A stretch of 63,008 nt of DNA, filler included, from Stramenopiles sp. TOSAG23-6 (taxonomy: Eukaryota), in assembly GCA_900128565.1 (NCBI GenBank). It is 19 parts of 19 records of this genome, joined end to end, with 100 filler letters (N's around TTAATTAATTAA, not from the genome) between each part and the next. Parts side by side here need not be neighbours in the genome. Positions count along the whole stretch, not along the records: positions 13,350 to 16,580 come from LT637601.1; 18 more parts are not named here. One strand, given 5' to 3'. The notes under the pieces are model-generated. The model was not told the origin of the DNA. It did not search any database and saw nothing but the letters and a program-made list of their open reading frames with translations. Below are positions 13,444-16,400 of this stretch, in pieces. Position numbers and translations under genes: made by a program. Each line of letters starts with the position of its first letter. Within the stretch, counting starts at the first letter, position 1.

Positions 13444-16400
13444 ATGGCTAGAAAAAAAACACAAAAATCATCGAATGTGTCCAAAAGTTTAAAACGTGAG
13501 AAGACCAAAATGGAAGAAAACAAAACGATATTACAAGAAACATCTATTTTACCAGAGGTAAGAATGTGCAATACTTCTAAACCAAATATATCAAGTATTA
13601 TAGCAGATAAAAGTGAAAATGGATATTGTGATGTAAAGAATGAAGGTAGCGATTATGAAGTAAAAAAGAATGTTAGTAATACTATTGAAACAAATATTAT
13701 AGATGATATTGTACATACTAATAATACTATTGAAACAAATATTATAGATGAGATATCAAACGTAAGTAACATTGCTGTGAGAGATTTACCAAAATCTGTT
13801 CACTCTTCAATATCAAAAAAAATTAGACAGATGTTAAGAGAGAAAAAAATCAGACAAACCACATTGGCCAAAGAGTGGGGAATGTATGTTTTAATTGTTT
13901 TTTTCATACGAAATTTTGTACCTAAACAAAAATTAACAAAAATTCAAATTTTTTTTTTGAAATATTTTTATACAATACATGTTGAATAGTGTTGTCATAT
14001 CACAATGGCTGGGTGGTAATATATTGACTCAGCATAACGTGGTAGTAGCTGGTCAGAAATTGATCGTACGTTTTCAAACAAAATTGTTTCNTTTTTTTTT
14101 ATATGAAATTTTGTACCTAACAAAACAAATTAAAAATGTTGGAAAAAAAAATATTTTTAATAGTACAGGAATGGTATATACAAAATGGTGGTGATGTAAC
14201 ACTTGTACCAGAGAAATTGAAAGATGATTTGGAATCAAATGCGAATAACAAAAGGCTAAAAAAACGGAATGAAAATTCATCAAAAATACTAATGAAACAA
14301 GAAAATATTGTTTCAAAACAAGAAAATATTGTTTCAAAACAAGAAAATATTGTTTCAAAACAAGAAAAGACTCTTTCAAAACAAGAAAATATTGTTTCAA
14401 AACAAGAAAATATTGTTTCATATAACTTTGATGAAGTCTATGAACATTTTCGCGTGATTCATACACGTGCTCGTCATAAAGCACAAATCAGTGTCACCGG
14501 TGCTGGTTTAGTATGTATGTTTTATTTTTTTTCCATTTCAATTTTTTTTCGTACGAAATGTTGTACCTAACAGTTTTTTTTTGAAATATTTTTCCAAAAT
14601 ACATATGTTGGTAATGTTTGTAGATATGGATCTTCACTCCCAGGGGGTCGCAATCATGCCGCTCGGTATGGTGAAATGATGCCGCCAATGTATGTTTTAT
14701 TTTTTTTTGTATGATTTTTTTTTCGTACGAAATTTTGTACCTAACAAAAATTAGTTTTTTTTTTGAAATATTTTTCCAAAATACATGGTTCACGCAATGG
14801 CACAAGAAATGATTAGACGATTAGGTGAGGGAAACGCTTTAAAGTTTGCTTCTACATTGAAAGATTCTAATAAAGTCATTTATGATTGCGGTTCTGGTCT
14901 TGGTAATGTAGTTGCACAATTAGTACATGAGACTGGGGCCACAGTAGTAGGTGTTGAATTAGATAAGGAACTGGTATCTATTAGTCGAAAATATTTTTCA
15001 TTTCTTCCAAACTATAACCCCAACCCTACTAAAAATGACAAAGAAATCCTGTGCGGAGAGCGTAAGTTAATATGTGGTGATTTTCTGGTTCAAGATATCA
15101 GTAATGCCGCAGTTATTGTAATGAATAATATAGCATTTCCACCAAATATGCAATATCCACTTTTAACAAAACTATCAAATGAAGCACCAATAGGAAGTCT
15201 TATTTTTCTGACAAGAGATATCCCAAATGTATCACGAATGCGTGATAGAAGTAGATCTGAAGCATTTGCACGACGTAATCCGGAACATCCAGCACTTCGG
15301 TTTGCGTGGTCGGTTGTAAAAAATAAAGTAGAAGTAGAAACTCGTTCTAGGATTACTAAGAAAAGAAGGAAAAGTATATCGCGTATTACAAAGAATAGTG
15401 AAAATTCAAAACGAAAGAAAACTTTTTCACAGTCCGTAAAAGAAAATAAAAGTGTAATGCCTAAGATATTTTCTTCTACAAGTAAAAATAGACAAATCGC
15501 CGCAAAACGAAGAAGAGACGTTGCTAATGAGCAAAAAATTAAAGATAGAGAACGTGCTGCAAAACGAAGAAAGGAAAATATACGCAGAAAAAGTGTTGGA
15601 AGTAAAACGTTAAAAGTTAAATCTCGAGCCAAAGCATTACAAAAATTAAGTAGAAGAAAAAAAAGTATTTGCAATCAAAAAGTAAATCGAAAAGTAAATC
15701 AAAAAGAAAACCAAAAAGAAAATCGAAAAGAAAATCGAAAAGAAAATCAAAAAGAAAATCAAAAAGANAATCGAAAAAAAAATCACACAATATTTACTCC
15801 TATTAAAAAAAACATTGTTCAAACATTTACTACGGGAGATATGATAAAAAGATCGTATCTACAAAATACTGTTTCTGGCGTTGCAGATTCTGAAAATGTG
15901 GTAGATTCTGTTAGTGCGATAGATTCTGTTAGTGCGACAGACTGGGCTGCTGTGGGTATTTTTAGATATTCCCCACCTACATCGACTGCACCAGTACTAT
16001 CAACAACAATGCCTGTGTCTATAGTTAGTATACCAGCATCTAAGACGATAGCACCCAAATCAACATTAATTAACAAGGCAAAATTTGTAAATGATACACA
16101 GAATACTACAAAGTTGCCGGAAAATTTTGAAAAGAAACAATGTAGCATTTCTTCAAAACATTTATTTTGTGCCCAACGTGTCTCAGATAGTAATGTTCCT
16201 GTTAATAGAGTTTTAGATTCATTGTCTGAATTAAATGATATTACAACGAAGATAAGATCCACTGAAAATGTTTCGGTGTTAAGTGTTGAAAAGAAAAATG
16301 ATGCTAAATCAAAAGATATTATTAAAGAAAAACACGATACTCTGAAATCTATAAAGTGTGATGATACTCTGAAATCTATAAAGTGTGATGATGCAGCAGC

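Follow-up and report, generated by a model that had tools for sequence, protein, structure and literature searches.

Introns with GT/AT ends from one dispersed repeat family in assembly GCA_900128565.1, and how they may have spread

Can a mobile element become an intron, and can the target DNA repeated at its borders become part of a splice site? These questions are raised by the introns of a DOT1-like gene (positions 13381-16525) in a 63,008-nt stretch of DNA from the assembly named Stramenopiles sp. TOSAG23-6, the whole of which is referred to here as the window. An initial annotation had described the introns at 13884-14786 as transposon-like units of the form AT[GTAT...ATAC]AT, and had proposed an AT-targeting element that makes a 2-bp target-site duplication (TSD) and is spliced out together with one copy of it. 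We found that the introns of the window form a repeat family resembling introners, whose GT/AT ends are non-canonical, a result well beyond chance. At least 45 introns of this family are present, on 14 of the 19 contigs that make up the window. Sequence comparison supports the view that they are copies of one dispersed repeat family carrying their own splice signals. Our preferred explanation, with a probability of about 0.55-0.6, is that these introns were dispersed by a DNA element that duplicates 2 bp of its target. The observation behind the initial proposal was partly confirmed and its interpretation partly supported, while the reading of the AT as a TSD was weakly supported.

One repeat family in unrelated genes

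The window is not one locus. It consists of 19 separate contigs of ~3.2 kb joined by linkers of the form N44-TTAATTAATTAA-N44 (at 3241-3340, 6580-6679 and onward every ~3.3 kb), so genes adjoining across a linker need not be neighbours in the genome, and the genes that bear similar introns are indeed unrelated, as first described. The introns share a common plan: a GTAYGT start, usually followed by TTT, then a T run, a TTTGTACCTAAC block, a second T run, a ATATTTTTYCAMAATAY module and two further bases. Across the whole window, a 21-nt core module gave 45 matches at up to 3 mismatches against 0.00 expected, and a 22-nt 3' module gave 33 matches against 0.04 expected. An alignment of 55 copies of the core module showed that only its right half is conserved, with columns 13-20 at least 90% identical. 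The last CTAA lies a median of 39 nt before the intron 3' end (n=44), and the TTTGTACCTAAC block is, judged by its sequence, likely to be the branch site, with the branch point predicted at the adenosine of CTAAC. Wherever a contig holds modules, they run from 5' end through core to 3' end without a change of strand; only the cores at 12248 and 62647 and the 3' module at 36701 break this rule.

Subfamily A has GTATGTTTTATTTT at its start and CCAAAATAC at its end, and subfamily B has GTACGTTTTCATCATGAATTT and CACAATAY at these positions. Spacer variants, for example GTATGA, AACAAAAAAATCGA and CATCATGAATTT, define subfamilies common to unrelated contigs. The best pairs of full-length copies on different contigs are 0.80-0.89 identical, against an all-pair median of 0.61 and at most 0.66 in shuffled controls. 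Some introns in unrelated genes had been called close to identical, which overstated their likeness, as the first two of the following copies illustrate.

61216-61321, minus strand: intron 87% identical to 14690-14786 by global alignment; both have the GTATGA spacer
52340-52508, plus strand: internally duplicated intron; two core units, each with a GTATGA spacer before it
458-542, 691-800, 998-1082, 1246-1342 and 1413-1505, minus strand: five introns of an EGF-repeat gene, subfamily B

The EGF-repeat gene introns mostly have unmatched flanks and, as their first base, A instead of G. Several other introns resemble 52340-52508 in holding two to three core units, or a core of one subfamily within the 5' module of the other (40514-40682, 52066-52241, 60893-61054, 23603-23739, 49891-50050, 33418-33552). 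None of the inner copies has duplicated flanks of its own. The sequence of these multi-core introns suggests that they arose by unequal exchange between copies, and not by nested whole insertions.

Many contigs begin or end within an element. When contigs of a seawater DNA run were compared with 13350-16580, bins on elements reached a summed depth of 60,140 against ~7.8 on exons (4,294 contigs); depth is not copy number, and we take this only as a sign of very many copies. Scans of public metagenome contigs with the core and the 3' module gave 0 matches each. A conserved hairpin in GTACGAAATTTTGTAC was considered and rejected, as pairing was possible in 77.5% of cells against 77.2% in shuffles, with no excess covariation.

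The DOT1-like gene illustrates the family, and its features are as follows.

13884-13980, plus strand: intron 1; GT/AT ends, flanks AT/AT, phase 2; the core occupies 13884-13978 and is followed by AT
14066-14168, plus strand: intron 2; family plan but canonical GT/AG ends, unmatched flanks TC/AG; the core ends GTAC at 14166
14515-14604, plus strand: intron 3; GT/AT ends, flanks AT/AT, phase 1; 3' module with 0 mismatches to the consensus
14690-14786, plus strand: intron 4; GT/AT ends, flanks AT/AT, phase 2; subfamily A consensus copy
14725-14745, plus strand: conserved core module of intron 4; its right half, TTTGTACCTAAC, is near-invariant and is the likely branch-site region
14787-16525, plus strand: last exon seen, with a DOT1 methyltransferase domain at ~14866-15258

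With the four introns excised, 13381-15768 reads as 667 codons without a stop, while the unspliced sequence meets a stop at codon 202. When the 3' ends were offset by -3 to +3, 81 of 2401 combinations stayed open, exactly those in which all offsets were multiples of 3. Intron 1 is flanked by open frames of 167 and 36 codons. For intron 2, the sequence reads against a nearer AG at 14162 as the end, because the frame would break. Intron 4 matches both the core 21-mer and the 3' 22-mer with 0 mismatches. The DOT1 domain was identified by Pfam (PF08123, E=1.2e-9, profile positions 42-173) and by PDB DOT1 chains (best E=1.1e-6). Exon 4 of this gene gave no Pfam or PDB match, so the junctions of the DOT1-like gene are defined by reading frames alone. 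The next family element, a subfamily B 5' end, starts at 16526, at the contig edge. The coding sequence also contains tandem repeats at 14295-14420 (21-nt unit, 6 copies) and 15673-15785 (12-nt unit, 9.4 copies).

Excision and intron borders

Removal of the elements was assessed in a curated set of 48. For each, the longest open frames on either side were compared after excision of the core plus the next two bases, a register that we call core+2 (the other register lies two bases leftward); agreement is expected by chance in 1/3 of cases. Excision as core+2 brought the flanking frames into register in 41 of the 48 elements (binomial p=1.3e-13), and four further elements (40328, 52866, 10967 and 52613) fitted once short exons were checked by hand. 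The other three, 24645-24485 (probably between two genes), 37846 and 23982, were excluded from the flank test. These elements are almost certainly family-derived introns removed as core+2. Junctions with protein or frame evidence include the following.

36219-36329, plus strand: glycine dehydrogenase intron; flanks TT/TT; ends GT/TT, or TT/AT in the other register
3618-3743, minus strand: acylaminoacyl-peptidase (APEH) intron; flanks AT/AT, phase 2
3839-3932, minus strand: APEH intron; GT/AG ends, flanks TT/AG; the second residue of the downstream exon corresponds to 7px8_A residue 505
4106-4200, minus strand: APEH intron; flanks TT/TT; frames kept, with 64 and 81-82 open codons
52613-52730, plus strand: third intron with TT/TT flanks; exons 52511-52612 and 52731-52865 join into 79 stop-free codons

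The Pfam GDC-P profile is seamless across 36219-36329, with positions 123-273 in the upstream exon and 274-336 in the downstream exon. In the alignment to 7px8_A at the APEH junction 3618-3743, the upstream exon spans residues 505-533 with its final residue on 534, the split codon is 535 and the downstream exon continues from 536. Together with the frame test, these junctions indirectly support the claim that excision with one dinucleotide copy leaves no scar. Both TT/TT introns reported earlier, 4106-4200 and 36219-36329, proved to be real, and 52613-52730 adds a third. Profile contiguity was uninformative at the PIG-L and K+ channel junctions and at the APEH exon 3933-4103. A PDZ domain suspected in the exons around 7873 was unsupported by Pfam, and looser 5' patterns were abandoned as they gave spurious introns, for example 49524-49683 inside a continuous kinase open reading frame (ORF).

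Most of these introns lack canonical ends. In the core+2 register (n=45), 32 are GT/AT (71%), 4 GT/AG, 3 GT/TT and 2 AT/AT, with one each of AT/TT, AT/CT, AT/CC and AT/AA, so that 41 of 45 are not GT/AG; in the other register this is true of 45 of 45, and 22 of them are AT/AC. Because the flanking AT is repeated, GT...AT is equally readable as AT...AC, and introns with matched flanks give the same mRNA either way. Introns with unmatched flanks weakly favour core+2. Only this register keeps, at 691-800, the Gly of the C-x-C-x-x-G motif, a Gly present in 6 of 7 uninterrupted EGF modules. It also makes the four AG cases canonical and gives a normal 5' site, GTAYGT, within which 39 of 45 introns start with the canonical GT. 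At 1413-1505, a six-residue Cys-Cys linker, as in 4 of 4 uninterrupted linkers, suggests by sequence reading an end at core+5, which is again an AT. Cores begin with GTAT in 24 and GTAC in 13 of 44 cases, as first described, but the described ATAC end is found in only 19, with ATAT in 9. Introns close with YAY in 31 of 45 cases (CAT 25, TAT 6), and the triplet upstream of the intron is YAY in 16 of 45. Phases are near even (about 18, 13 and 14, one of them reassigned by hand). APEH and GLDC are long conserved genes with few introns, and have exons of, for example, 504 and 327 codons.

The flanking dinucleotide and the mode of spread

We infer that these are real spliceosomal introns, nearly all of them copies of one mobile non-autonomous element, or introner. 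Each ~85-180-nt copy would supply GTAYGT as a 5' splice site of yeast type, TTTGTACCTAAC as a block resembling a branch site ~40 nt before the 3' end, and a T-rich tract with a conserved 3' module ending ATAY; the cut would fall two bases past this module, as a rule at an AT with a G after it. Dispersal as DNA is the most likely course, with insertion at AT, rarely at TT, and duplication of those dinucleotides, so that removal of the element with one dinucleotide copy would restore the original reading frame. The younger subfamily A would have kept AT on both sides, and the older subfamily B would have drifted, with some copies gaining a canonical AG.

The evidence for a duplication comes from the match between the last two bases of the upstream exon and those of the intron. 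This was found in 30 of 45 introns (27 AT/AT and 3 TT/TT), against the 22 of 34, mostly AT/AT, that had been counted before. When the 3' dinucleotides were shuffled among introns so as to preserve the AT bias, the mean was 24.1 matches and 30 was reached in 0.27% of shuffles (P=0.0027). The three non-AT matches were themselves more than shuffling gave (P=0.020 by shuffle; one-sided Fisher p=0.0027 for the TT table of 3, 2, 1 and 39). The sites themselves are far from random: the exon ends in AT in 31 of 44 cases against an exon background of 0.107 (p=1e-20), and the next exon begins with G in 25 of 44 against 0.194 (p=5e-8). Subfamily A has AT upstream in 19/19 and downstream in 17/19 copies, and subfamily B in 12/25 and 17/25, respectively (n=44). 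This pattern fits equally well a duplication followed by decay of the exon copy, or an AT-carrying element that prefers AT targets. A 3-nt duplication was rejected, since exon base -3 equals intron base -3 in 11 of 44 introns against 12.2 expected. At many phase-2 junctions, for example 13884, 14690, 21966, 37403, 50614 and 61827, the split codon is ATG (Met), because the exon usually ends in AT and the next often starts with G; this junction Met is a protein-level trace of the site preference.

Events at the DNA level are suggested by the placement of the modules. The 58 core matches at up to 4 mismatches comprise 39 in the sense orientation in curated introns, 2 palindromic echoes, 1 that is truly inverted (12248) and 16 outside the curated set, most of these cut by contig ends. 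The core at 12248-12268 is the sole real antisense core among the 42 in curated introns. Elsewhere, a plus-strand 3' module stands in a minus-strand context at 36701, and there is a partial plus-strand copy at 62647.

12209-12329, plus strand: intron whose core runs the other way, on the minus strand (12248-12268); flanking frames of 112 and 78 codons are kept
36634-36720, no strand assigned: wrong-orientation module; minus-strand core beside a plus-strand 3' module, at a contig edge

As far as the sequence goes, misoriented modules such as these, together with the TT/TT flanks and the duplication of modules within elements, speak more for events at the DNA level.

Several findings weigh against a DNA element that duplicates 2 bp, or qualify this explanation. 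The match excess is small, ~6 introns, and rests on the three TT/TT introns; one of these, 52613, was counted after a one-base 5' correction, and without it the match is 29 of 44 (P=0.011; non-AT P=0.079). Where the upstream exon does not end in AT, 7 of 14 introns still end in AT, including those with GG, CC and CA upstream, so the AT looks like a 3' splice signal carried by the element and not like a target copy. The elements 37846 and 23982, in which by sequence reading the frame fits only with the AT two bases further upstream, also point to the AT as a signal. The proposed inverted repeat GTAT/ATAC is exact in 19 of 44 introns and not in the remainder, and it spans only 4 nt, or 6 with the flanking AT; only in subfamily A can ~9-10 nt pair at the ends, with one indel, as read from the alignment. 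RNA contigs of three metatranscriptome runs compared with 13350-16580 contained no exon-exon joins; they covered the repeats and only scraps of exons, and so speak neither for nor against splicing. Contigs of one seawater DNA run that bridge the borders of introns 1-4 showed no intron-less joint, no empty site and no presence/absence polymorphism, although such contigs drop rare variants. No transposase domain was found among 29 ORF pieces of the window scanned with Pfam. Of the full copies in the window none is clearly intergenic and none antisense, and the absence of intergenic copies says little because the window is gene-dense. A locus-specific flank signal exists, but it is thin. For a flank match identical across introns, Gozashti 2022 (PMC9860276) calls the choice between TSD and insertion preference ambiguous.

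The same flank data could be produced by a DNA element that makes no duplication, but carries both splice sites including the terminal AT and inserts right after a host AT. The intron-end AT shows little dependence on the exon, other copies diverge at their loose ends only past the AT at 14786, and ATGTAT/ATACAT would form a 6-nt palindromic terminus, all of which such an element would explain. A precedent exists in the Spy elements, eukaryotic DDE elements whose AT-rich target is fixed: they go in between AAA and TTT, duplicate nothing, and had flanks that were misread as termini or TSDs until paralogous empty sites were found. The three TT/TT introns, which exceed the shuffles (P=0.02), argue for duplication, unlike Spy; their TT ends would otherwise require an independent mutation matching the exon by coincidence. 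We regard an element without duplication as unlikely.

Spread through RNA would have an excised intron reverse-spliced at an AT+G site of another transcript, followed by reverse transcription and recombination, an interpretation that has been given to fungal introners. The orientable full copies all lie in the sense direction (39 of 42 core matches in curated introns, with two of the three antisense matches palindromic echoes), insertion is exact, the terminal inverted repeats (TIRs) are weak, and the AT+G flank consensus, with its excess of G at the start of exon 2, resembles a protosplice site. The lack of clearly intergenic copies would also fit, but has little force in so gene-dense a window. 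Against this stand the locus-specific TT/TT matches, the inverted modules at 12248, 36701 and 62647, and the internal module duplications and exchanges; most surveyed introner families also fit DNA transposition. This route, too, has a low probability in our judgement.

If the introns were instead old and immobile, their likeness would reflect an unusually long obligatory splicing code, exon AT included. The three conserved blocks are placed like splice signals, low-complexity T runs make up the spacers, the 3' AT is kept no matter what the exon contains, and the YAY end (31 of 45) recurs in Fritillaria borealis. However, the subfamily spacer variants are common to unrelated genes, full-length identity reaches 0.80-0.89 against at most 0.66 in shuffles, the phases are near even, long conserved genes such as APEH and GLDC have few introns, and assemblies break within elements. 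We consider old introns very unlikely. Non-spliceosomal removal, in which pairing of the intron ends (GUAU with AUAC) joins the borders as proposed for euglenid nonconventional introns, is still harder to sustain. The ends are complementary over 4 nt, and over ~8 nt with a bulge in subfamily A, and in 4 of 10 introns the ends are paired in the fold of minimum energy; but the same ten introns gave fold z-scores of +0.47 to -2.44 with no common structure, subfamily B lacks extended complementarity, and the introns possess T tracts and a branch-like block besides a normal 5' site. Removal as U12-type (minor spliceosome) AT-AC introns, in the register ATGTATG...ATAC, is hardly credible: 22 of 45 are AT/AC in the register two bases leftward, and ACCTAAC resembles the U12 branch consensus, but the U12 5' consensus is RTATCCTT with a branch site near the 3' end, whereas 0 of 44 introns start with RTATCC (the first six bases being GTATGT, GTACGT, ATACGT, ATATGT, GTTTGT or GTACAT), the branch-like block lies a median of 39 nt from the 3' end, an Rfam search of the whole window matched no family, minor snRNAs included, and larvaceans are reported to lack a U12 system, a point that applies only if the organism is a larvacean.

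The host, related systems and significance

The gene content of the window, with EGF/WW repeats, TPX2, PA28 and DOT1, fits an animal type by sequence, and the intron code leads us to guess at a compact pelagic tunicate. Further genes include glycine dehydrogenase, acylaminoacyl-peptidase and acyl-CoA dehydrogenase (Pfam), together with PIG-L and ion-channel pieces. The G+C content is ~22-40% per 2 kb, mostly near 30%, and the DNA of the window is also present in seawater metagenomes and metatranscriptomes of several studies. The compact, AT-rich sequence and its occurrence in seawater DNA and RNA are compatible with a fritillariid larvacean.

Other features of the window were noted in passing. 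Three contigs have no copy of the intron family: 43263-46477, 46578-49790 and 53198-56402. The last of these, contig 16, has ~40% G+C and minus-strand polyketide/fatty-acid-synthase-like ORFs split by gaps as short as 10-52 nt, and may be a pseudogene, affected by sequencing error, or foreign DNA. Cyclophilin (45119-45868, named by sequence reading) and PA28 (44055-44894) appear intronless. The region 56504-59706 (plus strand) codes in two long exons for a protein of cysteine-rich repeats with DUF7107 units; one family intron, 57681-57781, separates the exons. The Ion_trans profile is matched over positions 26-123 at 23874-24311 (minus strand) and 123-212 at 37406-37708 (minus strand), on two different contigs, which may represent one channel gene split or paralogues. 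Telomere-type (TTAGGG)2 runs, often in a 15-nt form with an extra TTA, occur 16 times against 0.07 expected, for example at 6043, 10281, 23544, 25600, 30519, 42910, 44010, 50252, 50442, 50902, 51322, 51367, 60808 and 62727. Some lie within ORFs and are read as NPNP, LTL or GLGL, and those at 30519, 50442 and 62727 are within or next to intron elements; an origin as repair scars, or a functional motif, is conceivable.

The comparison first drawn, with the introners of Micromonas and Aureococcus, was apt. Introners of Micromonas pusilla and Aureococcus are reportedly the subject of Huff 2016, and a survey of 835 genomes of animals and plants recovered introners from only two groups of animals. 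The window introns share with the introners of Gozashti 2022 (PMC9860276) many near-alike copies in unrelated genes and an aquatic host and, as candidate features, non-autonomy, short TIR and TSD signatures, a splice site supplied by or beside the duplicated target and an mRNA unchanged after splicing. Those introners have GY/AG ends and 3-9 bp TSDs, whereas the copies described here have a 3' AT and a 2-nt repeat. Euglenid nonconventional introns likewise have complementary ends and non-canonical borders that carry short direct repeats, and miniature inverted-repeat transposable elements (MITEs) have been proposed as their origin, but they lack a pyrimidine tract and have stable end pairing, unlike the family here with its ordinary 5' and branch-like signals and no supported structure.

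A closer precedent is found in the non-canonical introns of Fritillaria, which Henriet et al. 2019 are said, in papers citing them, to have described. A MITE origin has been proposed for these introns from their TIRs and TSDs, and at least three fritillarids are reported to have many non-canonical introns. According to a review and Soo 2026 (PMC13326754), only 5% of F. borealis introns are GT/AG, the main classes are AG/AC (18%) and AG/AT (16%) with G-rich 5' sites, a YAY triplet ends the intron and often also precedes it, a U2-type spliceosome removes the introns, and introns ending in AT outnumber those with any other end in F. pellucida (44%) and F. borealis (34%). The window introns resemble fritillariid introns in that most lack GT/AG ends, in being short and T-rich, in the YAY at the intron end and the like triplet before the 5' site, and in a suspected transposon origin. 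Their pattern is nevertheless a different one from that of F. borealis: none of the 45 opens with AG (two do in the other register), 39 of 45 have a canonical GT within GTAYGT, and the repeated flank is 2 nt and not a triplet. A literature search, limited with respect to Henriet 2019 and supplements, found nothing further on larvacean introners, and the intron family may already be in print.

A candidate source of the element is suggested by the ISL2EU transposons of the PHIS superfamily, which make 2-bp TSDs, typically AT, and prefer AT-rich targets (PMC4122938). The window introns are like ISL2EU in their candidate 2-bp repeat, but the ISL2EU transposase (a DDE protein with THAP, plus a YqaJ ORF) was not seen among the window ORF pieces scanned. 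The ISL2EU link is a lead, not a finding. Possibly, though we hold it doubtful, one family of 2-bp-duplicating (ISL2EU-like) miniature transposons replaced nearly all introns of a compact chordate-like genome and thereby set its splicing code. If so, the spliceosome would read a transposon end (ATAY plus the duplicated AT) as a normal 3' splice site, the 3' splice site would be a TSD in origin, and this would be a solution independent of the AG/AC-AG/AT code of F. borealis.

Two long-standing questions are how genomes acquire introns in bursts and how much departure from the GT/AG rule is possible. Every intron definable in this sample belongs to one repeat family, and with its canonical-looking 5' site and fixed 3' module this family offers a simpler system than F. 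borealis in which to define a non-AG 3' splice site. Should the host be a fritillariid already surveyed, the novelty would lie in the anatomy of the element and not in the phenomenon. The TT/TT copies, with the possible ISL2EU link, provide a concrete route to ask whether a TSD can become a splice site.

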